From Candidatus Aenigmatarchaeota archaeon (GTDB lineage Archaea > Aenigmatarchaeota > Aenigmatarchaeia > QMZP01), in contig JAVZYR010000014.1 in NCBI GenBank assembly GCA_038999435.1, positions 1 to 17,390 of the forward strand: a stretch of 17,390 bases of DNA. Direction: 5' to 3'. This document shows, in pieces, positions 125 to 12,896 of the stretch (positions are counted from its first letter, which is position 1; each line of letters begins with the position of its first letter). The notes beneath the pieces are model-generated. The model was given only the letters and a program-made list of their open reading frames with translations. It had not been told where the DNA came from and did no database searches. The translations under genes and the position numbers were made by a program.

Positions 125-400
125 ATGCAAGGTATATCAACCCCTCTGCTCATTGTGATAACTTTAATAGTCATTCTCATCACAGCTCTTGTTATCCTAA
201 CGATTTTTTCAGGTGGCACGCAAGATATTGCAAGTGTGATAAATTCTTGGTTACATGGTCCTGGCAAACTACCTCCTGCATGCGCAACTGGTTGTAATGC
301 ATGGAAGGCAACATGCAAGCCAGGCGAGAGCATACCATATCGATCTTTCCCTGGTTGTGATTTAGATGGGGATTGTGTATGCCCACAAGTACAAAAATGA
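125..400 (+). CDS. Small class III signal peptide (pilin-like) protein with Cys-rich C-terminus
   Basis: MQG/ISTPLLIVITLIVILITALVILTIF: short leader, Gly, then a hydrophobic helix. Six Cys in the C-terminal half. Stop overlaps the scpA ATG (ATGA 397-400). Confidence 0.75.
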   Translation: MQGISTPLLIVITLIVILITALVILTIFSGGTQDIASVINSWLHGPGKLPPACATGCNAWKATCKPGESIPYRSFPGCDLDGDCVCPQVQK

Positions 401-1080
401 AAGAAGAAGATATTGTTCAGCTTCTGGCATCCGAATGGTCATGGGAACAGGTTCTATACAAAATAGTTGCAGCTGAAAATCTAAATCCATGGGACCTTGA
501 CCTGAAAATACTCTCAGATTCATTCATGAGATATGTGCTGAAGATGAAAGAGCTTGACTTTAAGATACCTGCAAAATATGTCATCATAGCATCTGTACTT
601 CTTCGTATGAAATCTGATGACCTGAGGATATTTAACTATGATGATGGCCTTGATGAATTCTCCTCAATCGAAGAGTTACAACCAAGACAGAAGATAGACA
701 TACCACCAATACAAATTCCGCATGGCAGGATATACAGAAAGCCTGTTATGTTGGATGATTTAATAAATGCGCTAAGGGCTGTACTAAAAACAGAAAAGAA
801 AAGACAAAAAAGATTTCACAACTTTGACATAAAACTCGATACTGTTGATATGAGCAAGAGGGCTGAAGAACTGTATGCATGCATATGCAAGATGATGAAA
901 GGGGAAAAGATAAGCTTCTCGCAATTGGTAAAGGAATGGAAGAAAGAAAATGTACTAAAGAATTTTATACCTCTAATACATCTTGATTTTGAAGGAAAGA
1001 TAAGATGTAAACAAGAAGTGCCATTTGATGAAATATTTATAGAGGTGAATGGGCATGGAAGAAAAGCTCGCACTACTTGA
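397..1080 (+). CDS. scpA: Segregation and condensation protein A (kleisin)
   Basis: N-terminal LNPWDLDL and IASVLLRMKS motifs; C-terminal FIPLIHL...QEVPFDEIFI winged-helix motif. Start moved from 373 to ATG 397 (ATGA coupling). Confidence 0.9.
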   Translation: MKEEDIVQLLASEWSWEQVLYKIVAAENLNPWDLDLKILSDSFMRYVLKMKELDFKIPAKYVIIASVLLRMKSDDLRIFNYDDGLDEFSSIEELQPRQKIDIPPIQIPHGRIYRKPVMLDDLINALRAVLKTEKKRQKRFHNFDIKLDTVDMSKRAEELYACICKMMKGEKISFSQLVKEWKKENVLKNFIPLIHLDFEGKIRCKQEVPFDEIFIEVNGHGRKARTT

Positions 1081-1543: not shown

Positions 1544-3102
1544 TATTTTGGGCAGATAAACTTGGCAAACAAGTAATTGAAAGAGAGAATAAGTTAAAAA
1601 GAACAAAGATTTTAAGGGTAGAGTCAGGTATTGGTGCCTCGGGTATCCCCCATCTCGGCTCTGCCTCAGATGCAGTGCGTGCATGGGCAGTATGTCTTGC
1701 GATAAGAGACCAAGGTAAGAATTCAGAACTCATTGCTTTTTCTGATGACAGAGACGGATTAAGAAAGGTTCCATCTGGATTTCCAACAACATTGAAATCT
1801 GAAATTGGAAAGCCTGTGAGCCTAATAAAAGATCCTTTCTCATGCCATGCAAGCTATAGCGAGCATATGTCAAGCCTGCTCATCGATGCACTTGATAGGC
1901 TTGGAATTGAATACAAATTTCAATCAGGAAATGTTGCATATGCTAAAGGGATGTTAGACAAACAGATAGACCTTGCATTAAAAAATTCAGATAGCATAAA
2001 AAAGGTGATCAAGGACATGCTCGGACAAGAGCTTGTAACTGTCTTTTTTCCTATATGTCAAAGATGTGAAAGGATATACACAACAAGGGTCACAGGTTAT
2101 GAAAATGGAAAGATAATCTATTCATGTGATGGTGAATTTGAAGGAAAGGTTGAAGGCAAGCCATTGATTGTTAAAGGCTGTGGATATAAGGGAGAGTGTA
2201 CAACGAAAGATGGAAAGCTTGCATGGAAGGTTGAGTTTGCAGCCCGATGGGCAGCACTGAAGATATGCTTTGAGGCATATGGCAAGGACATTGCAGATTC
2301 TGTGAGGGTAAATGATTGGGTAAGTAAGAATATATTTGGATGGGAACCACCAATACATGCGCAGTATGAACTTTTCTTGCAAAAGAGTGGGGCAAAGATA
2401 TCTAAATCTGTTGGAAATGTCATAACACCTCAGCAATGGCTTACATGTGCATCACCACAATCACTAAATCTCCTCTTCTACAAAAGATTTGTTGGAACGA
2501 GGGAGATAGATCTGTCGTCAATACCTGTTTATATGGATGAGGTTGACAGGCTCGAACGTATATGGTTTGGTGAAGAAAAGGTGCAAAATGAAAGAGAACT
2601 TGCACATCTGAAAAGGCTCTTCGAATACATAAACTATCTTAACCCGCCAAAAAAGCCGCATATACACATTGCATATCACATACTTGCAAACATTGCAAGG
2701 ATCACACAAAACAAAGAGATTATAAGGCAGATACTTATTGACATGGGAAAGATAGAACCTGGCAAAGAAAGCCAAGATGTTGAAAAGAGGATTGAATGGG
2801 TGATAAATTGGATTGGAAAACAGGAAAAAGAGAAAGTGAAGATAGGCAGCGCTGAAGCTGTCCCGCTTTTCATGCTTGCGGAATGGCTTGAGAAAGAAAG
2901 GTCTGCAGAAGAGATACAAGGAAAGATATTCGAGCTGGCAAAAAGCCATGGCATACAACCACCAAAACTTTTCGAACTTGTATATGCAATACTTCTCGGC
3001 TCAACACGAGGGCCAAGAGCAGGAAAACTCATAAAGATACTTGGTTGCAAAAAGGTTTCTGAGGAAATTAAAAAGGCATTGAGTGGGCCCGCTGGGATTT
3101 GA
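1540..3102 (+). CDS. lysS: Lysine--tRNA ligase, class I
   Basis: FWAD start, SGIGASGIPHLGS (HIGH-like), DDRDGLRKVP, PICQRC, KLAWKVEFAARW, EAYGKD, KISKSVGN (KMSKS-like), C-terminal GPRAG. Confidence 0.96.
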   Translation: MIFWADKLGKQVIERENKLKRTKILRVESGIGASGIPHLGSASDAVRAWAVCLAIRDQGKNSELIAFSDDRDGLRKVPSGFPTTLKSEIGKPVSLIKDPFSCHASYSEHMSSLLIDALDRLGIEYKFQSGNVAYAKGMLDKQIDLALKNSDSIKKVIKDMLGQELVTVFFPICQRCERIYTTRVTGYENGKIIYSCDGEFEGKVEGKPLIVKGCGYKGECTTKDGKLAWKVEFAARWAALKICFEAYGKDIADSVRVNDWVSKNIFGWEPPIHAQYELFLQKSGAKISKSVGNVITPQQWLTCASPQSLNLLFYKRFVGTREIDLSSIPVYMDEVDRLERIWFGEEKVQNERELAHLKRLFEYINYLNPPKKPHIHIAYHILANIARITQNKEIIRQILIDMGKIEPGKESQDVEKRIEWVINWIGKQEKEKVKIGSAEAVPLFMLAEWLEKERSAEEIQGKIFELAKSHGIQPPKLFELVYAILLGSTRGPRAGKLIKILGCKKVSEEIKKALSGPAGI

Positions 3103-3158
3103 ACCCAGGTCGGCAGCACCCCAAGCTGCAATGCTAGACCAAGCTACACCACGGGCCC
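3084..3158 (-). tRNA. tRNA-Pro(GGG), intronless, CCA not encoded
   Basis: Reverse complement folds as GGGCCCG acceptor / D arm / GCAGC-TTGGGGT-GCTGC / CTGGG-TTCAAAT-CCCAG / CGGGCCC-A. Confidence 0.95.
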
Positions 3159-3959
3159 AAAAAGCCTTCTGCAAAACCTTTGTTCTTTTTTGAAATCCGA
3201 TTCTGTTGGTGCACTTCTATCTACTTTAGCTACTGTTTCAAGCAGCACATATCTACAATTGCTGTTTTTTATAATGGTTACAAGCCTTTCTATATCAAGT
3301 TGGCCTTCACCAAGAACAAGATGGTCTATAGGCCTTCCAGTTAGAATGCAGTCATGAAAATGTATAGCTTCTATCCTATTTTTATGCATCTTAAACCACT
3401 CATCAACATTATAATCCTTTTTTTGAATCCATCTTACAATCACTGCATGACCAATATCAAGGCATATTTTTTCTATTTTGTTAAAATGTTCTGGAAGGCC
3501 CATAAATAGACATGGATTGTTTTCGATAATTATGTTTATTTTATGCTTTTTCCCAAGCCTTTTTAGCCTATTCAATGCATAAAGAGCATATTTATCTGAT
3601 TTTCTTTTTATCTCCTCAAATCTATATGTTGGTATATGATTTAAGATATGAGCATTGTAATAGTATGGCTCAAGCCCTGATATCGATTCTATCGATTCTC
3701 TCATAACCTCAAGGCTAGCATTTCTTATCTCAGAAATAGGGCTTGCTATATCCATTCCAGCCCATGGTGCGTGGAATGCATAGCCAAGCCCAAATCTTTG
3801 TGCATTTGTGTGAATGCTTTCTGTTTTCTTAAATATATGAATTGGATAGTCAAGCGAGAGCTCAAAATAATCAAAGCCAAGATGTGAAACTCTTGATATA
3901 GCCCTCTCTAACCCAAGCCTCCTTATGTCCCCATACCATACAGGTATGCCTAATTTCAT
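3144..3959 (-). CDS. Sugar phosphate isomerase/epimerase / AP endonuclease 2 family TIM-barrel metalloprotein
   Basis: GFDYFEL, FHAP, IIIEN, CLDIGHA, IHFHD, DHLVLGEG and LLE motifs. The true start is probably ATG 3959 (MKLGIPV); the longer ORF to 4058 runs into tRNA-Arg. Confidence 0.85.
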   Translation of the reverse strand: MKLGIPVWYGDIRRLGLERAISRVSHLGFDYFELSLDYPIHIFKKTESIHTNAQRFGLGYAFHAPWAGMDIASPISEIRNASLEVMRESIESISGLEPYYYNAHILNHIPTYRFEEIKRKSDKYALYALNRLKRLGKKHKINIIIENNPCLFMGLPEHFNKIEKICLDIGHAVIVRWIQKKDYNVDEWFKMHKNRIEAIHFHDCILTGRPIDHLVLGEGQLDIERLVTIIKNSNCRYVLLETVAKVDRSAPTESDFKKEQRFCRRLFGPVV

Positions 3960-3974
3960 ATGGGCCCGGAGGGA

Positions 3975-4137
3975 TTCTCTCTGGAAACCCTCAAGGTTTC
4001 CAGCCATCCGGGAGCTGTTTCGCTTCGCTCCACAACGCTTCCGGAAGCGTGCCCGCAAGCGCTTTCTTCTTGAAAGGTTTTGGAAGCGGTCAGCTTCTTC
4101 TTTCCGCGAGCGCTTTCTTCTTGAAAGAAAGGGCTCA
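3975..4137 (-). other. 163-nt T-loop (59/60) intron of tRNA-Arg
   Basis: Interrupts TTCGAA^TCCCTC. Ends AGAG-AA, which partly pairs with TTCG, followed by a bulge. Multi-hairpin and GC-rich. The exact splice register is inferred from BHB geometry. Confidence 0.8.
4053..4127 (-). repeat. 24-nt direct repeat pair (23/24 identical) separated by 27 nt, inside the tRNA-Arg T-loop intron
   Basis: CTTTCAAGAAGAAAGCGCTCGCGG (4127-4104) and CTTTCAAGAAGAAAGCGCTTGCGG (4076-4053). Confidence 0.9.
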
Positions 4138-4159
4138 TTCGAACCCTCGACCCCCGGCT

Positions 4160-4192
4160 TTCTTCATTTTTATCAGCTCTTCTAAGAAGACT
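4160..4192 (-). ncRNA. 33-nt canonical 37/38 intron of tRNA-Arg; candidate minimal box C'/D' methylation guide
   Basis: BHB geometry: CTTC (32-35) pairs with intron GAAG; bulges TA^A and AA^A. Contains CTTAGAAGA-G-CTGA-TAAAA-ATGAAGA. The intron call is firm; the guide function is inferred. Confidence 0.6.
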
Positions 4193-4215
4193 TAGAAGAC
4201 CGGTGCTCTATCCAA

Positions 4216-4243
4216 TTGCTTGCCCTTTTATTTAAAAAGGGCT
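4216..4243 (-). other. 28-nt D-loop (15/16) intron of tRNA-Arg
   Basis: GCTC-AG^A-[GCCCTTTT TAAAT AAAAGGGC]-AAGC-AA^T: relaxed bulge-helix-bulge with an 8-bp intron hairpin. Confidence 0.85.
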
Positions 4244-4263
4244 CTGAGCTACGGGCCCATATC

Positions 4264-4845
4264 TTATTTTAGAAAAATTGTAATAAAGATTGCTGTCAAA
4301 GGTGGTATGAGAAGGTTGTCATCGATTATATACTTCAGCTTCTTGTTTTTAACGAGCACAGGTATTAGTTCCACGAATGTTGCAAAAACAGAGACTGGTA
4401 TTGAATACAGACCTATAAAATACCATGAAGTTAGTGAACCAAAAAAGAATGCAAGGCTGCCCTCAATGCTCTTTTCTCCTATCTTATGTCTACCTGCAAA
4501 TTTCCCAATCAATGTTGCAAGTGCATCACCAACAACAAGAATAAGGCATGCTGCTGATGCTGTGTTAAGAGGAAATAAAAGGAATGTCAGGCCCATAGAG
4601 AAGAAAAACCAGAACGCGCCAATGAGTGGGAATTCTGTTTCTCTTTCAAATGAGAGAATAAATTTTCTAAAATTTTTTTCAGCAGGATGTAACATCACGC
4701 CCCATCTCAAATAAACAAGATAGACAAACATGAAAAATGCTATCATAAAACACCAAGAAAATATCATACTTCCAATAAACTGGGCAATAATTATGAATAT
4801 CAACCCTGAGAGATGTACAAACTGTCTTCTTATCTCCCTTTTCAT
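4264..4845 (-). CDS. Dolichol/phytol (polyprenol) kinase family membrane protein (CTP-dependent)
   Basis: EIRRQFVHLSG, GDALATLIGK...KSIEGSLAFF and DDNL motifs; several hydrophobic helices. Confidence 0.85.
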   Translation of the reverse strand: MKREIRRQFVHLSGLIFIIIAQFIGSMIFSWCFMIAFFMFVYLVYLRWGVMLHPAEKNFRKFILSFERETEFPLIGAFWFFFSMGLTFLLFPLNTASAACLILVVGDALATLIGKFAGRHKIGEKSIEGSLAFFFGSLTSWYFIGLYSIPVSVFATFVELIPVLVKNKKLKYIIDDNLLIPPLTAIFITIFLK

Positions 4846-5759
4846 GCTGGTATGATACCAATCCTTATTACAAAAAGGAAAATCGCAAATGCTGCAACAA
4901 GCATTATCAGTGAATGCTTAGCCCCTGCCAATATGGATGATTCGCTCAACTGTCCAACTATAAAACCCATGAAAATAGCCTCTATTACAACGATTGTAAA
5001 GAAAAGTGAAGTATAATATAATGTTACTCCAGATGATAGACCAAGGGCTGCTCCAAGTATTATGAAATAATTACAGGGGAATGTTTTTGCCGATTGACAT
5101 GGATTTGAAAATCCAAAGCCGTATTGTGTTTGTGTTGGTTGTGCTTCTATGATTGGAACCATTATTGATATAATCAAAATCGCTATTCCTAAGAAAACAA
5201 AGAATATTCCATACATCAACATTGTATGCCCTCTTGCCATCGATTCTCTTTCAGCATCTATTTCTTTGAACATGAGCATATTTCGTGCAATTGCATCAAG
5301 TGTTGCTGCAACATCACCACCAGATATATTTGCCTCCTTCATCACTATCAGTGCTTCTGACATAAGCCTTGAACCTTTTACCCTTTTTTCAAATATTTCA
5401 AGAACACGTGTAATCGGAACATCCCATGTCAACTTTGCAGCAATCCTTCTTATCTCCTCAGACAATTTCCCATAATCTGTTTTTGATGCTGATATGATTG
5501 CCTGCTTCATTGACATTCCAGACCTAATCGAATCCGAGACATCCCTGATGAAGTTTGGAAATTGCATCTCAAGTGACTTAAGCCATGTATAGTGTGCATA
5601 TTTTACTAAAAAAATAGATATCACAAAAACAAGTGTAGCAATCATAATCATATTTCCAAGCACACCAACATCCATGCTTAACAAACCTAATATAACTAAA
5701 AATATCGCTATTGTTGTTGATGCAAGCATTATTTTTTGATTTTGTGCAAACTCTTTCAT
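4842..5759 (-). CDS. Type II secretion system F family / TadC-like pilus platform membrane protein
   Basis: FPNFIRDVSDSIRSGMS, DYGKLSEEI and SGGDVAATL T2SSF motifs plus TM helices. Start moved to ATG 5759 (ATGA overlap with the upstream stop). Confidence 0.88.
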   Translation of the reverse strand: MKEFAQNQKIMLASTTIAIFLVILGLLSMDVGVLGNMIMIATLVFVISIFLVKYAHYTWLKSLEMQFPNFIRDVSDSIRSGMSMKQAIISASKTDYGKLSEEIRRIAAKLTWDVPITRVLEIFEKRVKGSRLMSEALIVMKEANISGGDVAATLDAIARNMLMFKEIDAERESMARGHTMLMYGIFFVFLGIAILIISIMVPIIEAQPTQTQYGFGFSNPCQSAKTFPCNYFIILGAALGLSSGVTLYYTSLFFTIVVIEAIFMGFIVGQLSESSILAGAKHSLIMLVAAFAIFLFVIRIGIIPA

Positions 5760-6607
5760 GTCTCGTAAGGTGATATCGATTTCAACAATATTATGAATGC
5801 GAGTGAGAGCAGCGGCACAAAAAAGAATGTTATAAAAGATTGAAGCCATATTACACCATGACCTATCATAGGAGACATTATAGCAAGTAGCACAACAAAG
5901 AAAAGTGAACCGAGTATGACAAGTGTTGTATAGATTTCAGTATAAAGAGATATTTGTTTAGAATAATCAGTAAGCATTCTGCGGTAGCCTGCCATAAGAC
6001 TTTCTGTTTTGATCTTAAGATATTCTTCTAGATTCCCTCCTGCAGTTATGACAGATGACATACCAATGAGAAGCTCTGAGAATGCAGCAGATGGTGATCT
6101 CATTGCAGCCCTTTGAAGTGCTGTATTCAAGTCCATACCAAGCGCTGTTACATTTGTATATATCCTTTGTGCTTCATGACCAATTATACCCTTTCTCATC
6201 CTGAGCAACCGAAATATCTCTATTGGATTTGAGCCAGATGATGCAATAGTTGTCATATAAAAAGCAGCAAAGGGTAAGCTTCTTTCAATCTCTCTTTTCA
6301 GCATACCAATTCTCATCGTTGGATACCAATAACCAAATAGAAAAACGATTGATGAAGATATTATTGCTGAAATGATAGAAAATGTAAAAGCATATGTTGC
6401 GTGTGGTGCAAGAAATGGTATGAGTAGGGATGAAAATATGAGAGTGAACAAAAATGCTAAAAGGGAGAATAGAATGTATTGACAAACATATTCAAGAATA
6501 CTTTGTTTCATCCTTGCCCTTTTTAGTTCTATCTTGAGGTTTTCAAATGAGCTAAGATATGGCTCAACTATCCTTCCAAATAAACTGACTGCAAACTTTT
6601 CAAACAT
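5756..6607 (-). CDS. Type II secretion system F family / TadB-TadC-like pilus platform membrane protein
   Basis: IERSLPFAAFYMTTIASSG, AAMRSPS...FSELL and GGNLEEYL motifs; TM helices; directly follows the ATPase. Confidence 0.88.
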   Translation of the reverse strand: MFEKFAVSLFGRIVEPYLSSFENLKIELKRARMKQSILEYVCQYILFSLLAFLFTLIFSSLLIPFLAPHATYAFTFSIISAIISSSIVFLFGYWYPTMRIGMLKREIERSLPFAAFYMTTIASSGSNPIEIFRLLRMRKGIIGHEAQRIYTNVTALGMDLNTALQRAAMRSPSAAFSELLIGMSSVITAGGNLEEYLKIKTESLMAGYRRMLTDYSKQISLYTEIYTTLVILGSLFFVVLLAIMSPMIGHGVIWLQSFITFFFVPLLSLAFIILLKSISPYET

Positions 6608-6608
6608 A

Positions 6609-8327
6609 TCATAAACCTATCATTTCAATGACCTTTTCAGGTGTTGTGTAATAAGCTTGAATCACTTTTGTTGCTTCTCTGTAATCATATATACCATTTT
6701 CATATATCCACTCAAGTATCATCTTTCTTCTTATCAATTCTTCCTGTATGGCAGTATCAGCAAGACCTGTACGTCTTGCTATTTTTTTAAGCACAACAGA
6801 CCTTCCTTTTATTTCATGACTATCATTTAACGGATCCCATTCAAAAACCTTATTTGTTACAGGCCTTTCATTTTCAATCCCAATTATCTCAAGTATTGAA
6901 TCTGCCCTTCTTATATATCTTCCTTTATGCCTTGCGAGTGTGAGAAAAACGATAATATCTATATTCTCAAGTAATGTTGGAGGAAGTGAGATTGGAGGTG
7001 TTATCAACCTATCGATAAGCTGCGGGATTGTCGCAGCATGCATCGTTGCTAATGATGGATGGCCTGTTGCCATCTGTTGGAAGAGTACATATGCCTCCTT
7101 CCCTCTTACCTCACCAACGATTATGTAATCAGGCCTTTGTCTCAGGCTTGATTTAAGAAGATCGAAGAGTGTGACTTCACCAATCCCTTTTCTTACAGAT
7201 AGAGGGGTTCTTGCAACATGAGGTATCCAGTGCGGATGATAAAGCCTCAGTTCAGCTGTATCCTCGATTGATACAACCTTTAATGTTGGCCTTATAAATA
7301 GCGATAAAACATTAAGCAGCGATGTCTTACCTGTAGCAGTTCCACCCGAAATGAGAATTGATTGACCATAATCAACTGCAAGCCAGAGATATGCAAGTTC
7401 TGTTGAGCTCAATGTATTGAAATATATCATATGTGATGGTGTGAGTGGCTTCTCTGTAAACTTTCTTATTGTAAAGTTAGAGCCCTTTCTTGCTATGTCT
7501 GTTCCAAGCGTTGCCTGCACCCTGCTGCCATCAGGTAGTGTGCCATCGAGAAGTGGCTCTGCTATTGATATTGTTTTATTACATTTTTGAGCAAGTTTTA
7601 TAACAAATGTATTCAGCTCATCCGGATTTGTAAATATTACATTTGTTCTGACAGAACCTATTCGCGGATTTCTGTGATAGACATATACAGGTATGCCAAC
7701 ACCATCACAACTCAAATCCTCTATGTTTGGGTCAGCCATTAGTGGCTCAATGCGACCAAAACCCATCACATCCCTTTCAATGTAATATATGATTGTTGCC
7801 AATTTCTCTTCATCGGGTGGTATACCAATATTCTTTGCAGCCAGCAGCACTGCTTCTCTCAATAACTCCTTTGCCCTCACAACACCAAGTTTTGTAAAAT
7901 CGATATCAAGCCTTTCCTCGAGCTCCCTTTTTATCATCTCTATAGCCTCCTTATCTGCCATGCTAATTGGAGGTTCGATAACATTATAAACAAGTTGAAG
8001 TGTTGATGGGTCCCATAGTATGTGTGCCCATGCAAATACCCTCTGTCCCTTTTTAGGTTCTTTTGGTATTAAAGGATATTTTATATTTATCGTTTCAAGT
8101 GTCTCTTTTTCTTCTATTTCAACAACAGCCCTTGGTCTTAGTTTTGTTTCTATCTCTATAGCTTCTGGTTTTGGTTTCTCTATTTTTTCTTCAACCGCTA
8201 CAGCAGGAGCTGTTGGAACTATAACCGGTGGGGCTGATACAATCGGTCTTGTAGGTGGTTTATGTAGTGCTATATACCCTTCTCTAAGTCTTGCCAAAAG
8301 AGCCCTGATACTGTATCCATCGCTCAT
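6609..8327 (-). CDS. Type II/IV secretion (pilus assembly) ATPase, VirB11/CpaF/FlaI-like
   Basis: Walker A GGTATGKT, Asp box SIEDTAEL, LRQRPDYIIVGEVRG, His box TGH...TMHA, and FTIRKF. Confidence 0.95.
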   Translation of the reverse strand: MSDGYSIRALLARLREGYIALHKPPTRPIVSAPPVIVPTAPAVAVEEKIEKPKPEAIEIETKLRPRAVVEIEEKETLETINIKYPLIPKEPKKGQRVFAWAHILWDPSTLQLVYNVIEPPISMADKEAIEMIKRELEERLDIDFTKLGVVRAKELLREAVLLAAKNIGIPPDEEKLATIIYYIERDVMGFGRIEPLMADPNIEDLSCDGVGIPVYVYHRNPRIGSVRTNVIFTNPDELNTFVIKLAQKCNKTISIAEPLLDGTLPDGSRVQATLGTDIARKGSNFTIRKFTEKPLTPSHMIYFNTLSSTELAYLWLAVDYGQSILISGGTATGKTSLLNVLSLFIRPTLKVVSIEDTAELRLYHPHWIPHVARTPLSVRKGIGEVTLFDLLKSSLRQRPDYIIVGEVRGKEAYVLFQQMATGHPSLATMHAATIPQLIDRLITPPISLPPTLLENIDIIVFLTLARHKGRYIRRADSILEIIGIENERPVTNKVFEWDPLNDSHEIKGRSVVLKKIARRTGLADTAIQEELIRRKMILEWIYENGIYDYREATKVIQAYYTTPEKVIEMIGL

Positions 8328-8719
8328 TCAATAAATATTTTGTTTTCAGTCTTTTTTAATTCGAGCTTTCCAGAGGAGCTTGTTGCCCTGCCAAACATGT
8401 TGCAATCTATTTCAAGTTTAGCCTCTGCTGTATATCTTGCTGTTTGAAGTGTTATGTTATTTTCTGATAGCATTATAATATATGTCGATTCTCCAACTTT
8501 TGTTGGTATGTCTATATTCATGCTAACGTTCGATGGGTTGCTTGCAATTTCGTATATAGCTGAAATTATGTAGCTCTTTACCATTTCAAGTTGGGTTGCT
8601 TCTGTCTGTTCCCTTACATAATTCTGATTTGCCAAAAACAGTGATTCACACATAAGAAATATCGCTACACCAATTCCAAAAAGCAATACTGCTTCCAGTA
8701 TAACATTTTGGCCTTTCAT
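8324..8719 (-). CDS. Minor pilin-like protein (class III signal peptide)
   Basis: MKG/QNVILEAVLLFGIGVAIFL; coupled within the pilus operon. Confidence 0.75.
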   Translation of the reverse strand: MKGQNVILEAVLLFGIGVAIFLMCESLFLANQNYVREQTEATQLEMVKSYIISAIYEIASNPSNVSMNIDIPTKVGESTYIIMLSENNITLQTARYTAEAKLEIDCNMFGRATSSSGKLELKKTENKIFIE

Positions 8720-9288
8720 TCGAATGTTAGATTGATGTATGTTTTATAGCTATCATCTGATATCTCGGTTCTATTAAATACAGCCTTTATGAAGCCCTTT
8801 CCTGATGTGGTCGGTCCTTTCAAGTTTATTATATAGGTTCTGTTATTCTCAAGGGGTCTGAAATAAATCTCAATCCTCATTGTCTTTCCAAGCTTTTGAT
8901 AAACAGGTTGCCATGGCTTGTCTTTACCATACATACCGGGTTTTACACTGCTTACAAGCTCTGGAAAATACGTCTTTGCTTCAATCTCATCCAAAGCTAT
9001 TTGTGCTGAAAACTCTATCCATATCGAGTTTGGTTTTGTGGTAGCATCCCAACCCTGAACCCTTACAGTCATACCTGATGGTATCTTATAATGTTTTGTT
9101 CCGCCCTCATTTGCAACACTAACAATACCATCTGCAACTTGTGTAGCAAAGGCCTTTGCTTGCTGAAACTTTCCAACTGCTTCATTTAATTGCATAATTG
9201 GAATGATAGATTGATATGAAAATGCAATAAGTGCTATGAAAATCCCTACCAATATCACCATCCCCAAAATATTTGCTTGTAGTTTCAT
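8716..9288 (-). CDS. Minor pilin-like protein (atypical class III signal peptide)
   Basis: MKL/QANILGMVILVGIFIALIAF N-terminal hydrophobic helix; operon context. Confidence 0.7.
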   Translation of the reverse strand: MKLQANILGMVILVGIFIALIAFSYQSIIPIMQLNEAVGKFQQAKAFATQVADGIVSVANEGGTKHYKIPSGMTVRVQGWDATTKPNSIWIEFSAQIALDEIEAKTYFPELVSSVKPGMYGKDKPWQPVYQKLGKTMRIEIYFRPLENNRTYIINLKGPTTSGKGFIKAVFNRTEISDDSYKTYINLTFE

Positions 9289-9294
9289 CTAAAA

Positions 9295-9696
9295 TTAGCA
9301 ATTTACCAAACTTTCATCATATTTGGATGCTGTTGCAATATAGACAGAATATGAATTACCTTTTGTGATGTTTGGACTTGTGATGTTTATCTCTATTGCT
9401 TTTTGTGGCTCAATTGTGAAATTCTCAGGTGCTACCACTACTGGTATTACAGCCTCCCCCATTTTTTTAACTCTTATTGCAACAAAATCTGATCTTTCAA
9501 GAGGCAATGCTCCTGCGTTCGAAATTGTGAGATAAATGACATTATTTGCCCCTCCACAATCAATACCAGATATAACAAAAATCTTTGAAACTGTTGTAGT
9601 AAAATAACCCATAAAGAAAAGATAGGCTGCACCTGCAAGTGCTACAGTTATGAGAAGTAGCAAAATACTTGCAATCACAGCAGATATCCCTTTCAT
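9295..9696 (-). CDS. Archaeal type IV pilin (probable major pilin)
   Basis: MKG/ISAVIASILLLLITVALAGAAY is a classic archaeal pilin N-terminus. Start moved from 9741 to ATG 9696. Confidence 0.88.
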   Translation of the reverse strand: MKGISAVIASILLLLITVALAGAAYLFFMGYFTTTVSKIFVISGIDCGGANNVIYLTISNAGALPLERSDFVAIRVKKMGEAVIPVVVAPENFTIEPQKAIEINITSPNITKGNSYSVYIATASKYDESLVNC

Positions 9697-9697
9697 A

Positions 9698-10168
9698 TTA
9701 AGCACTCTTTGTTGTAGTTGGAGTAGGTTGATAGTATGCATATACCCTTTTCATTCTTTTATCAAGCATATCGAGTGTTGCCAACATTGCCTGTTGCGTC
9801 TCAAGTGCCTTTTTGTTCTGCTCAAGCAGCTCATCAAGCTTTTTTGTGAGCGGTTCTATCGTCTTTGCACCAAATCCTGCGATCATCTCTTCTTGTGCAG
9901 ATGCCTTTAACAATTTCATAAATTCATTGAATGCTGATATAATCTGGTCTATCTTTGGTGGGATTGCTGAAAGCTCAGTAACAAGCTCTGTATTTGACTT
10001 TATTACATTGTCAATGACCCTTTGGTTTGATTTTATAAGCTCGATTATTTGTTCAATAAGCCGCCTTGTCTCTGATGTGGTTGATGTTTCCTCAAGCCTT
10101 GCTAATCTCTTTTCAAGCCGTCTTATTGGTGATGCAGGTATGATTTCGTACTCCTCTTCTTCTACCAT
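9698..10168 (-). CDS. Hypothetical coiled-coil protein, first gene of the pilus operon
   Basis: Helical heptad-like sequence (IRRLEKRLARLE, LTKKLDELLEQNKKAL); abuts the pilin gene. Confidence 0.75.
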   Translation of the reverse strand: MVEEEEYEIIPASPIRRLEKRLARLEETSTTSETRRLIEQIIELIKSNQRVIDNVIKSNTELVTELSAIPPKIDQIISAFNEFMKLLKASAQEEMIAGFGAKTIEPLTKKLDELLEQNKKALETQQAMLATLDMLDKRMKRVYAYYQPTPTTTKSA

Positions 10169-10189
10169 ATTATTAATGGTTTTTCCTTT

Positions 10190-10197
10190 AATATAAA
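10190..10197 (-). promoter_or_regulatory. Putative TATA box for the pilus operon (leaderless transcript)
   Basis: TTTATATT on the - strand, 22-29 nt upstream of ATG 10168. No SD sequence seen. Confidence 0.45.
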
Positions 10198-10263
10198 TCT
10201 AATTTAATGCTTTTTGTAAAAGCCATTTACCTGTTAAACAGAATTAAAATAAACCATTAATTA

Positions 10264-11907
10264 TCAATACTCTTCTTCAAGACCAGGTGATTTTGGACTT
10301 GGCATGCCCTTCTCTTTTGGGCTTGCTGATATCATGTCATCTATTCTCAATATCATCTCTGCTGCCTCTGCTGCTGATTTTATTGCCTGTAGTTTTATTT
10401 TTAATGGCTCTATCACACCTGCCTTCAACATGTCAACAACTTTGCCTTCAAATACATCGAGCCCACCTGTCTTGTTACCTTTTTCATGAGCAGCCCTCAA
10501 TGCAACAAGATTGTCTATCGGGTCAAGACCTGCATTCTCTGCAAGGGATCTTGGTATTATCTCAAGTGCATCTGCAAAGGCATTTATTGCAAGTTGTTCT
10601 CTGCCATGGAAACCCTCTGCATATCTCCTCAGCTCCTTTGCCAGCTCAATTTCTATGGCACCGCCACCTGCAACAACCTTTCCAAGTTCGATTGCCGATG
10701 CAAGTCCTTTAACTGCATCCTCCATTGCCCTCTCAACCTCTGATACAATGTGCTCTGTTCCACCTCTTATGAAAATTGTAACCGCTTTTGGATTCTTGCA
10801 CTTTTCAACGAATATCATTGCCTCTCCAGCAATCTTTCTTTCCTCAACAAGGCCTGCCTCTCCAAGATCTGATGTTGAAAGGTCATTTAGATTTGTTATG
10901 ATGTTACCCTTTGTTGCCTTTGCAAGCTTTTCCATATCTGATTTCTTCACCCTTCTTGCAGCAAGTATCCCTTTCTTTGCAAGATAGTGCTGAATGCTAT
11001 CATCTATGCCTTTCTGGCAAAGCACAACGTTTGCGCCTGTCTTGGCAATCTTTTCAACCATATCTCTTAACATCTTTTCTTGCTGTTCTATGAATGCCTG
11101 CATCTTTTCAGGGCTATCAATGCTTATCTTTGCATCGCCTTCAAGCTCTTTAATTTCAAGTGCACAATCAAGAAGTGCAATCTTTGCATTCTTAACAGAT
11201 TTTGGCATGTTTGGATGTACAACCTCTTTATCAATCAGAATACCATCAATGAGCTGCGTATCATTCATCGATCCGCCTTCTTTTTTCTCAATTTTAACAT
11301 TGTCTGTATCAATGAATACCTTTTTGTCTTTTTCCTCAGCAATCTTCTTTATCGCTTTGACAGCAAGTTGAGCAAGCTCCTTTGATGCCTTTTCAGCAGA
11401 TTTGCCTGTCATTGCAGTCTCTGCAATTTGAATAAGCCTTGCCTCATCATCTATACTTATGTTCATTGCTACCTCATTTAATATCTCAAGTGCACGATTC
11501 TTTGCAATCCTAAAACCTTTTGTGATGACAGTTGGATGTATATCTTGTTCTAACAACTCTTCTGCTTTTTTGAGCAGCTCACCAGCAAGTACTGCTGCTG
11601 TTGTTGTGCCATCACCAACAATCTTGTCTTGAGTTTTTGCAACCTCAACAATCATCTTTGCAGCAGGATTTTCTATTTGCATCTCCTCAAGTATTGTTGC
11701 ACCATCATTTGTTATCACAATATCACCAAGTGAATCTACAAGCATCTTGTCCATCCCTTTTGGTCCCAATGTTGTTCTTACAGTATCTGCTATTGCCTTT
11801 GCTGCAGCTATGTTTGCTCTAAGTGCATCCTTTCCTCGAGTTCTTATTGTACCTTCTGGCAAAATGAGTATCGGCTGACCTCCTATTTGTGCAATTCCAT
11901 TAACCAT
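10264..11907 (-). CDS. ths: Thermosome subunit (group II chaperonin)
   Basis: [38 protein letters not shown] and ILRIDD motifs; SD GGAGG upstream. Confidence 0.98.
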
Positions 11908-11948
11908 AAAACCTCCAAAAGATATTATATAAATAAAATTACTATAGA

Positions 11949-11964
11949 TTTAAAAACTTTTCGG
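11949..11964 (-). promoter_or_regulatory. BRE + TATA promoter of the thermosome gene
   Basis: CCGAAAAG-TTTTTAAA on the - strand, about 42-57 nt upstream of the ATG; fits the archaeal BRE/TATA consensus. Confidence 0.65.
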
Positions 11965-12066
11965 TTTTAGCATCTACACATTTGAAACAATGTCTTATGA
12001 TTTACAAATCCACTGATTATTTAATGTAAATTTTAACATAATAAATTATATGGGCCCGTAGCTCAG

Positions 12067-12105
12067 TGCTGTCACACCTTTCAATAAAAAGTGTGACGCG
12101 AGCAT
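12067..12105 (+). other. 39-nt D-loop (15/16) intron of tRNA-Ile
   Basis: GCTC-AG^T-[GC T GTCACAC...GTGTGAC GC]-GAGC-AT^T: perfect 4-bp central helix with two 3-nt bulges. Confidence 0.88.
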
Positions 12106-12149
12106 TGGTTAGAGCAACGGTCTTATAAGCCGTGGGTCGAGGGTTCGAA

Positions 12150-12261
12150 TGAGCCCTTTCTTTCAAGAAGAAAGCGCTCGCGGGCACGCTTCCGGAAGCG
12201 TTGTGGAGCGAAGCGGAACAGCTCCCGGACGGCTGGAAACCTTGAGGGTTTCCAGAGAGAA
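12150..12261 (+). other. 112-nt T-loop (59/60) intron of tRNA-Ile
   Basis: Interrupts TTCGAA^TCCCTC. 110/112 identical to the tRNA-Arg T-loop intron apart from a 51-nt indel. Four hairpins. Confidence 0.8.
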
Positions 12262-12275
12262 TCCCTCCGGGCCCA

Positions 12276-12896
12276 TCATAAAAATTTTGAAAAATCCTCT
12301 CTATCCAAATCTATTTCTTTTAAAGATTTCTCAAACTTTTTGACATAATCTTCCAATTCAAATTTTTTCCATAACTTCTCTATCCTTTCTCTATCTGCAG
12401 CAACAACTGGCTTTTTTGGCACAACACGACAGCACCCTGCATGCCTTTCTGACCATAGCCCAAGCCTTTTTGACAGGCTTACAATCTCTTCCTTATCAAA
12501 GCAAAGTAAAGGTCTGATGATTGGCACAGATGAAAATGAAGAGAGTGCGACAAGATTTTTCATTGTTTGTGATGCTTTTTGCCCAAGCGATTCTCCTGTA
12601 ACAAGTGCAGAAAAACCCATCTTTTTAGCTATACAACTACCAACCTTGTACATGCCTGCACGACAAAGAAGACATTGATAGCCTTCTGCTTTTGCAACCC
12701 GAGCAAGAAAGTTGCCCCATGGCACGACATACATCTTACTGTCAATCTTTTTTGCAGCAGATAAAACGGCATTTGCAGCACCTGTACAATAAAATGGATA
12801 AAGAACAAAATGTAGAAGTTTCACTTTATACTTTTGAGCTATTAATTTTGCAGCAACAGGTGAATCTATACCTCCAGAAAAAAGTGCTAAGAACAT
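12276..12896 (-). CDS. thiI: ThiI-like tRNA sulfurtransferase, PP-loop catalytic domain only
   Basis: LFSGGIDSPVA PP-loop, CLLCR, VTGESLGQKASQT, IRPLLCFDKEEI and GCC. 206 aa, with no N-terminal THUMP region. Confidence 0.82.
   Translation of the reverse strand: MFLALFSGGIDSPVAAKLIAQKYKVKLLHFVLYPFYCTGAANAVLSAAKKIDSKMYVVPWGNFLARVAKAEGYQCLLCRAGMYKVGSCIAKKMGFSALVTGESLGQKASQTMKNLVALSSFSSVPIIRPLLCFDKEEIVSLSKRLGLWSERHAGCCRVVPKKPVVAADRERIEKLWKKFELEDYVKKFEKSLKEIDLDREDFSKFL

Follow-up and report, generated by a model that had tools for sequence, protein, structure and literature searches.

The T-loop of a tRNA-Ile(UAU) gene in the genome of a Candidatus Aenigmatarchaeota archaeon is interrupted between nucleotides (nt) 59 and 60 by an insert of 112 nt composed of four hairpin cassettes. 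The gene lies in a DNA stretch of 17,390 nt (in the following, the window), which is contig C14 of a host genome of 549 kb in 30 contigs (86% complete), recovered from hot-spring metagenomes, of which five DNA runs hold this DNA. The insert probably represents a single composite, protein-spliced intron with a relaxed hBH motif at position 59/60, which would have been acquired as a block and whose multi-hairpin loop would be tolerated during splicing; the splice-motif-like tails inside this loop would be relics that are not needed. The analysis established the identity of the gene, the cassette anatomy of the insert, the spread of the cassette family over the genome, its absence from a sister genome, the terminal splice motif and the type of the splicing endonuclease.

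Identification of the interrupted tRNA-Ile(UAU) gene

The unspliced gene gave a partial tRNA match with Rfam (12101-12158, 21.5 bits). When both inserts of the gene, one in the D-loop and one in the T-loop, were removed in silico, the exons alone reconstituted a cloverleaf tRNA, which ARAGORN called as tRNA-Ile with the anticodon TAT for most of the boundary choices tried. The 112-nt insert is bounded by TTCGAA (nt 54-59) and T60 (12262), and nt 54-57 of the T-loop constitute the exon strand of the central splice helix. The preliminary description of this DNA had regarded the gene as a second copy of a tRNA-Arg gene; the ARAGORN assignment corrected this, and the paralogue in the window, at 4258..3961, is tRNA-Arg(UCU). 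The T-loop insert of the latter (3975-4137, 163 nt) consists of the same four-cassette element and an additional 51-nt repeat unit.

The possibility that the interrupted genes are broken pseudogenes or were disrupted by repeats was rejected, as 25 genes of this genome have perfectly matched exon halves and are interrupted at one splice-compatible position. No uninterrupted duplicates of these 25 genes were found in the genome by ARAGORN, Rfam or the pattern search described below.

Anatomy of the 112-nt insert

Folding of the insert revealed no stem that joins its two ends; this places the intron in the relaxed hBH (bulge-helix-loop) form and not in the strict hBHBh' form. Instead, four separate hairpins were found. 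The hairpin 12151-12179 has 12-nt arms that are 92% complementary (-12.1 kcal/mol, z -2.8), the palindrome 12186-12201 has fully complementary 8-nt arms (z -2.1), the hairpin 12205-12225 comprises 5 bp and is weak by itself (z -1.8), and the hairpin 12233-12255 has fully complementary 9-nt arms (z -3.9). The z values for the insert and for the whole Ile gene were -2.8 and -5.0, respectively.

These hairpins define the cassettes A, C, D and E (Table 1), three of which end in a tetramer able to pair with nt 54-57 (UUCG), followed by two further nucleotides. CGGG+CA (12181-12186) forms four of four pairs, two of them G-U, and stands one nucleotide (G12180) out of register; CGGA+CG (12226-12231) also forms four of four pairs. 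The last tail, AGAG+AA (12256-12261), forms three of four pairs and leaves G57 opposite an A. At the 3' site a 3-nt bulge is constituted by A12260 and A12261 of the intron and T12262 of the exon, followed by the 3' strand of the T-stem (12263-12267).

The G/A-rich insert offers tetramers that are fully complementary to UUCG at 9 of 109 positions, and tetramers with at least three of four pairs at 30 of 109. Two of the three internal hairpins are followed within one nucleotide by such a tetramer, for which a chance of about 0.07 was estimated, so that the tetramer pattern of the insert, taken by itself, is not clearly beyond chance. The four hairpins are beyond chance because they recur as cassettes across the genome.

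The anatomy given in the preliminary description was thus confirmed by direct reading and folding: the four hairpins were found at 12151-12179, 12186-12201, 12205-12225 and 12233-12255, the insert is not closed by one stem, the modules 12204-12231 and 12232-12261 have the exact layout of a stand-alone 59/60 intron (1 nt + hairpin + 4 nt + 2 nt), the first module is one nucleotide off register and the palindrome has no tail. The claim of three tails pairing with TTCG held for their coordinates and for the full pairing of CGGG and CGGA; AGAG reaches three pairs only.

Table 1. Coordinates of the interrupted tRNA genes, introns and cassettes in the window.
Feature	Position	Strand	Basis or remark
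tRNA-Ile(UAU) gene with two inserts	12052..12275	+	acceptor stem from G12052, discriminator A12275
D-loop intron, position ~15/16	12067..12105 (boundaries +/-2 nt)	+	direct reading; ARAGORN tolerates a range of boundaries
T-stem 5' strand (12139-12143) and T-loop nt 54-59, TTCGAA (12144-12149)	12139..12149	+	direct reading
T-loop (59/60) intron, 112 nt, four-cassette composite	12150..12261	+	reading, ARAGORN, folding
Cassette A: hairpin 12151-12179, spare G12180, tail CGGG+CA	12151..12186	+	folding, direct reading
Cassette C: palindrome 12186-12201 and TG, no tetramer+2 tail	12186..12203	+	folding
Cassette D: 1 nt, hairpin 12205-12225, CGGA, CG	12204..12231	+	folding, direct reading
Cassette E: 1 nt, hairpin 12233-12255, AGAG, AA; terminal splice motif adjoining T60	12232..12261	+	
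T60 and T-stem 3' strand	12262..12267	+	direct reading; joins the final two bases of the intron in closing the 3' splice-site bulge
Paralogous tRNA-Arg(UCU) gene with three introns	3961..4258	-	tRNA-Arg(tct) in 47/50 boundary choices (ARAGORN)

The D-loop intron of the Ile gene consists of one nucleotide, a hairpin, the tetramer GAGC, which pairs with GCUC of the D-stem, and two further nucleotides. The Ile and Arg genes have identical acceptor and T arms and related T-loop inserts, and their D-loop introns are unrelated. The two genes may have arisen by duplication and later divergence of the anticodon arm; UAU and UCU are one base apart. About 800 nt from the Arg gene, at 3083-3158 on the minus strand, lies a tRNA-Pro(GGG) gene without interruption; not every tRNA gene of this genome is therefore colonised.

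A family of hairpin cassettes in the tRNA genes of the genome

The genome was searched for further interrupted tRNA genes with a pattern that required the two halves of a T-arm, the 3' half no more than 520 nt from the 5' half, together with a matching acceptor stem. Inspection reduced the 65 raw matches to 25 tRNA genes; the other 40 were duplicates or not tRNA-like. All 25 retained genes carry an insert at 59/60, seven of them of 11-38 nt and 18 of 89-306 nt. ARAGORN found 10 tRNA genes in the genome and Rfam likewise 10 above its cut-off, which means that most of its tRNA genes escape the standard tRNA finders.

A short-word BLAST search of the Ile gene against its own genome revealed parts of it in nine other contigs, in differing combinations. 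Cassette A occurs 20 times in the T-loop inserts of 14 tRNA genes. Cassette D was found 15 times, each time directly followed by cassette E, and E is terminal in 13 of the 25 inserts, its hairpin abutting the terminal tetramer. The order A-C-D-E was assembled independently in six genes, and the C-D-E block is tandemly duplicated in two. The element of the Ile gene recurs with 94-95% identity in four other, unrelated tRNAs; positions 11-112 of the Ile insert share 97% identity with the Arg insert. In other copies the palindrome C has a 5-nt insertion in its loop. Further cassettes were recognised in other inserts, namely F (a hairpin with the tail CGAG+CA), the small hairpin B, the longer H (about 57 nt) and the unrelated family J. 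In all 18 long inserts a stable hairpin begins at base one or two of the intron, and these hairpins belong to three unrelated families.

Beyond the 25 genes, cassette matches were restricted to the D-loop of a tRNA-Val gene, an insert in the 23S rRNA gene and three arrays at contig ends; none was found inside protein-coding genes in the search of the own genome. Two of the arrays, C16:1-170 and C18:2-48, we took to be truncated T-loop inserts of tRNA genes, and the third, C16:13795-13963, adjoins sequence without a recognisable RNA gene.

Several of these locations deserve description in their own right. Units of about 60 nt that make up the J family are arrayed in tandem at position 59/60 of a tRNA gene at the contig end C16:1-240 (minus strand); at the opposite end of this contig, the J array C16:13795-13963 is followed by sequence without a recognisable tRNA 3' exon. 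Cassette A is present in the D-loops (about 15/16) of two tRNA genes, C3:7277-7423 and C18:605-741, one of which is tRNA-Val(UAC). The tail CGGA+AA of these copies has no exon sequence to pair with, and a convincing terminal tetramer was likewise not found. The 23S rRNA insert (about 190 nt, contig C8, about 322-507, minus strand) lies between the conserved stretches GGGGAACUGAAAC and AUCUUAGUA and is composed of A, B and H cassettes as they occur in tRNA inserts; unlike the latter, it has a long-range stem of about 10 bp that closes it, and a convincing splice motif could not be drawn. The H hairpin of the T-loop inserts in C2, C8 and C18 (about 57 nt) holds CUGA-AUGAUG-UCUGA, which resembles C/D boxes but leaves no room for guides.

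The terminal splice motif and the splicing endonuclease

Every one of the 25 inserts ends in a tetramer that forms at least three of four pairs with nt 54-57 and is followed by two nucleotides, mostly AA, and T60. Eight terminal tetramers form four pairs and 17 form three, compared with the background of 30/109 positions for at least three pairs within the insert. Among the 13 inserts of this genome that lack the AGAG ending, eight have a terminal tetramer whose first base, as read by eye, pairs with nt 57. In a related genome of the same genus, G001, this holds for eight of eight introns. In the folding model, nt 54-56 of the Ile gene pair with the last bases of the insert with a probability of 0.88-0.95 at 37 C, and the internal tails reach at most 0.005. 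An inner helix is absent from the short introns of the genome (11-19 nt), whose 5' site the enzyme must therefore cut within a loop.

A fragment of the splicing endonuclease EndA is encoded at the start of another contig (C7:3-527, locus L013). The fragment comprises 174 residues, the gene being cut by the contig end, and holds the catalytic domain (PF01974, 77 bits). It aligns end to end with residues 219-387 of PDB entry 4FZ2 (E 4e-55), the three-unit epsilon2 enzyme of ARMAN-2 as given in the available text of Hirata et al. (2012, PMC3488258). By this match the endonuclease is of the three-unit epsilon2 type. According to the portions consulted of PMC3239211 and PMC3488258, the epsilon2 enzyme cleaves in vitro both the strict motif and a relaxed hBH intron at 59/60. 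A paper of 2018 lists this type only for relatives of Micrarchaeum in the part of its text available to us (PMC5829648); the present host is labelled as belonging to the Aenigmatarchaeota.

Comparison with related genomes and public collections

The four-cassette element was not found in any of 60 relatives. One of them gave a weak hairpin-like match inside rRNA on the opposite strand, which was judged not to be the same element. The same-genus genome G001, in which 22 of 27 Rfam tRNA matches are above the cut-off, was read more closely. Eight of its tRNA genes have a 59/60 intron of 10-49 nt, and in all eight the terminal tetramer forms four of four pairs with nt 54-57 of the same gene; the tetramer starts with C where nt 57 is G (six of six) and with U where it is A (two of two). 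CGGA+AA is the terminal motif of two of the eight. The tRNA-Ala(GGC) gene, found in the same gene neighbourhood in both genomes, has no insert in G001 and one of 178 nt here; the corresponding lengths are 12 and 109 nt for Glu(CUC) and 10 and 178 nt for Pro(CGG), and Val(UAC) is uninterrupted in G001 and has two inserts here. The 10-12-nt introns of Pro(CGG) and Glu(CUC) in G001 are unrelated to the cassette family. These short or absent introns indicate that 59/60 is an old hotspot in the genus and that the cassette family is a recent expansion in the present lineage.

The G001 loci L034, L035, L038 and L039 have introns of 14, 38, 45 and 49 nt, which have the opening bases of one hairpin in common. 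G001 thus has its own family of 59/60 introns.

The pattern of the E hairpin gave 11 matches in public genome contigs, all in bacterial records, which were taken as chance matches without inspection. Neither the A-hairpin pattern nor the E-hairpin pattern gave a match in public metagenome contigs; records of the own genome may be excluded from the search.

Proposed splicing of the composite intron

In the mechanism that we favour, nt 54-56, and possibly nt 57, of the T-loop would pair with the terminal tetramer 12256-12259. The resulting helix and the T-stem would frame the 3-nt bulge A-A|U60, a relaxed hBH motif that would define the 3' site. The 5' cut would fall after A59, two nucleotides past the same helix, with the first hairpin starting from the second intron base, and the remainder of the insert would be tolerated as a multi-hairpin loop. 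An endonuclease of the epsilon2 type would make both cuts and a ligase would join the exons. The internal tails CGGG+CA and CGGA+CG would be relics of cassettes that once ended short 59/60 introns, and might serve as optional alternative pairing partners that are not required.

Several points weigh against this mechanism. The terminal helix has three pairs with G57 opposite an A and is weaker than the helix offered by the internal CGGA, which pairs at all four positions. The nearest-neighbour model prefers a shifted register, in which nt 54-56 pair with the last three bases of the insert and U60 alone is bulged; as this register is favoured over the proper 3-nt bulge, the model says little about the enzyme-bound form. 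Likewise, energies of hand-built structures and pair probabilities favoured no proper bulge-helix-bulge conformer and are a weak pointer only. The EndA loop that has been shown to give the ARMAN-2 enzyme its broad specificity lies upstream of the sequenced fragment, past the contig end. Two exact stand-alone layouts, together with CGGA+AA as a terminal motif in G001, make the internal tails look functional in form, and since the cassette family is young (94-100% identity) the missing covariation in these tails is weak evidence. Contigs assembled from four DNA runs over 3700-12500 stop at repeats, at 12163 and 12247 in the Ile gene and at 4125 and 3989 in the Arg gene; since these unitigs break inside the insert, the order of the cassettes within it is known from the original assembly only. 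What we infer from these data is where the cuts fall, in which order they are made and that the internal tails are relics.

Alternative splicing pathways

The preliminary description had proposed that the insert needs stepwise splicing. In such an obligatory recursion the exon tetramer would pair with the nearest tail, the unit would be cut out and the ends ligated, the next unit would then adjoin A59 and the cycle would repeat until the last cassette is gone. The exact layout of 12204-12231 and 12232-12261 (1 + hairpin + 4 + 2) would be explained in this way, as would the full pairing of the tails in 10 of 15 D and 10 of 12 F cassettes and the fact that CGGA+AA terminates real short introns in G001; a tiling of the insert into three units (37, 45 and 30 nt) is possible, given one spare base and one two-hairpin unit. 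However, the strict unit layout is exact in two of the four units, one being off by one base and one having no tail, and strict tiling was achieved in none of the 18 long inserts. Because the palindrome has no tail, at least one step would have to remove an unclosed two-hairpin unit, and an enzyme capable of this could also remove the unclosed four-hairpin whole. The tails themselves do not behave as maintained splice sites: those of the first cassette form four pairs in 9 of 20 copies, three in 9 and two in 2 (four read CAGG and one CGGC), internal E copies form one and two of four pairs, one D copy (C18:841-1066) has no 5' arm, and the tandem arrays of the J family occupy the same site without such tails. 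In tRNAs with A57, 15 of 16 internal tails keep the non-pairing base and terminal tails pair in 5 of 10, which is weak evidence in a young family. The sequences that follow the A and F hairpins are homologous (16/27 identical, reached by 3 of 2000 shuffles) with the tetramers shifted by one base, so that they are not independent coincidences and the one-nucleotide register slip is real. Moreover, the T-stem, with its 3' strand 30-75 nt distant, would not close the 3' bulge at an internal tail, and the folding model assigned these pairings the very low probabilities given above. Since 11 of the 20 first-cassette copies have a degenerate tail and the internal tails fail to change along with nt 57, the need for stepwise splicing was not borne out, and we regard obligatory recursion as very unlikely. 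A branched, facultative pathway, in which the exon tetramer may pair with any of the three tails and the insert is removed in one, two or three steps to give the same tRNA, accounts for the same anatomy. Epsilon2 and (alpha-beta)2 enzymes cleave relaxed motifs in which only one bulge is well formed, as far as the consulted parts of PMC3239211, PMC5829648 and PMC3488258 describe, and the three alternative helices are only about 2.5 kcal/mol apart in the folding model. Still, the internal tails show no sign of maintenance and the extra ligation cycles would be costly without evident gain, which makes this pathway doubtful, although it is the alternative that we would take most seriously.

The hairpins at the two ends of the inserts could also point to two half-sites without intermediate ligation, an HBh' site at the 5' cut, framed by the first hairpin and its tail, and an hBH site at the 3' cut, framed by the tail of the last hairpin and the T-stem, between which the exon tetramer would switch partners. 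The stable hairpin at the start of 18 of 18 long inserts, drawn from three unrelated families, and the 13 of 25 inserts in which the E hairpin directly precedes the terminal tetramer agree with this arrangement, and 5' and 3' sites can be independent hBH and HBh' entities, according to the available portion of a review (PMC4090602). But the first-cassette tail, which would have to serve the 5' cut, is degenerate in the same 11 of 20 copies, the short introns of this genome need no inner hairpin, and the 5' hairpin may be the mere end of a mobile element; the arrangement is accordingly judged improbable, to much the same degree as obligatory recursion. Least credible of all is the explanation that the insert hosts a functional RNA, such as a guide RNA, or that its cassette order is an assembly artefact. 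The strong folding of the insert and of the whole gene would suit a functional RNA, yet no Rfam family except tRNA matches, and from copy to copy the cassettes change order, are duplicated or lose parts, variation that is incompatible with a functional RNA. The breaks of the contigs from four DNA runs within repeats would suit an artefact, but the order A-C-D-E was assembled independently in six genes.

A relaxed tiling that allowed three of four pairs, one base of slack and short loops divided most inserts into many pieces of 9-15 nt; as it fits almost anything, it has no discriminating power and was dropped. The CGGA tail could alternatively pair with UCCG of the palindrome in a fold of 12187-12231 (-16.4 kcal/mol); this was rejected as an explanation for the presence of the tail, because copies with the 5-nt loop insertion lose this pairing and keep the tail.

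Origin of the composite

The presence of the element with 94-95% identity in four unrelated tRNAs and its absence from the same-genus genome indicate that the composite spread as a block. The unit that spread was the composite and not the single cassette, and the Ile gene received or inherited the four-cassette element in this form. Near-identical introns were thus found in non-homologous tRNAs and were absent from the orthologues in G001, a distribution that fits a transposing tRNA intron family.

Differences between related inserts lie in direct repeats. The borders of the extra 51-nt piece in the Arg insert are ambiguous over a direct repeat of about 25 nt. In the C-D-E duplications, the junction falls on 8 nt common to the end of E and the loop variant of C, and the D copy without a 5' arm lost it at a 4-nt microhomology. 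The H cassette begins right after CGGA+AA in two genes and one base later in a third.

These observations bear on the evolutionary part of the preliminary description. Its view of the insert as modular, with paralogous inserts differing in cassette content, was upheld by the genome-wide comparison, and position 59/60 is indeed a hotspot, occupied in 25 tRNA genes here and read in eight of G001. Serial addition of introns at the hotspot fared less well: the hotspot stands, but build-up at this very locus does not, given the same element at 94-95% identity in four unrelated tRNAs. Two modules and the tail CGGA+AA do resemble former complete 59/60 introns, as had been suggested; their stepwise removal is not needed. 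The expectation that homologues vary by whole modules found no support, since the differences lie in direct repeats and not at the predicted borders.

A more far-reaching origin may be considered. The cassettes could be mini-introns mobile at the RNA level, reinserted at 59/60 by a reversed endonuclease and ligase reaction and then fixed in DNA; in tandem they would keep live internal 3' sites and be removed along a branched, partly recursive route. We hold this to be unlikely. If true, it would give archaeal protein-spliced introns their first known case both of recursive splicing and of stacking targeted to a splice site.

Relation to known systems and significance

The closest known case is ARMAN-2 (Candidatus Micrarchaeum acidiphilum), for which the available text of Fujishima et al. 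(2011, PMC3239211) gives the same intron position 59/60, the same relaxed hBH motif with the T-stem as outer helix and the same epsilon2 type of enzyme; it also has a tRNA-Ile(UAU). In comparison with ARMAN-2, as far as that text goes, the long inserts described here are distinguished by their size (112-306 nt), by hairpin cassettes common to at least 14 genes and by internal hairpins that carry splice-motif-like tails. Transposition of tRNA introns was described for Thermoproteales in 2010, as summarised in the consulted part of PMC4090602. There, too, near-identical introns are found in unrelated tRNAs of one genome with lineage-specific gain, and the splice motif is thought to define the target. 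In contrast to what this summary reports, almost all copies in the present genome are at 59/60, the inserts are mosaics whose cassettes duplicate and recombine, and cassettes also occur in 23S rRNA and D-loops.

Other resemblances are more distant ones. In the recursive splicing of long spliceosomal introns and in the twintrons of Euglena plastids, removal of one piece regenerates the next splice site; these systems depend on the spliceosome or on self-splicing, and stepwise removal has been demonstrated for them. The present case shares with them the idea only, as the machinery differs and stepwise removal is a hypothesis here. Bacterial REP/BIME and Rickettsia palindromic elements are short hairpin units, variable in order and number, that multiply within one genome. 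The cassettes are like them in being hairpin units of variable order and number within one genome; in contrast to REP/BIME, all their matches lie in tRNA or rRNA inserts or in contig-end arrays and none in protein-coding genes.

A search of the full-text literature found no report of stacked or stepwise-removed introns at one tRNA position, none of recursive splicing among archaeal protein-spliced introns and no description of T-loop introns built from cassettes. A preprint of 2026 on tRNA introns of Asgard archaea does not contain the words nested, recursive, stepwise, tandem, T-loop or DPANN. With regard to the parts of the sources named above, the position, motif class and enzyme match ARMAN-2, and the spread among unrelated tRNAs matches intron transposition in Thermoproteales. 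What is new here is the cassette construction, the length, the near-saturation of one position and the presence of cassettes also in rRNA.

As use of the internal tails is unlikely on present evidence, the composite intron is above all an extreme case within a known class and can be explained as such. A typical archaeal tRNA intron is short and has one splice motif; in this genome the T-loop position of most tRNA genes is filled, with inserts of up to 306 nt. In the sister species, introns at these sites are short or missing, which makes this a recent and datable case of the spread and growth of introns. The inserts are also a natural series in which the minimum structure required by an epsilon2 endonuclease can be tested. 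Were the internal tails used, recursive splicing would join the archaeal repertoire and would point to a mechanism of insertion at the RNA level.

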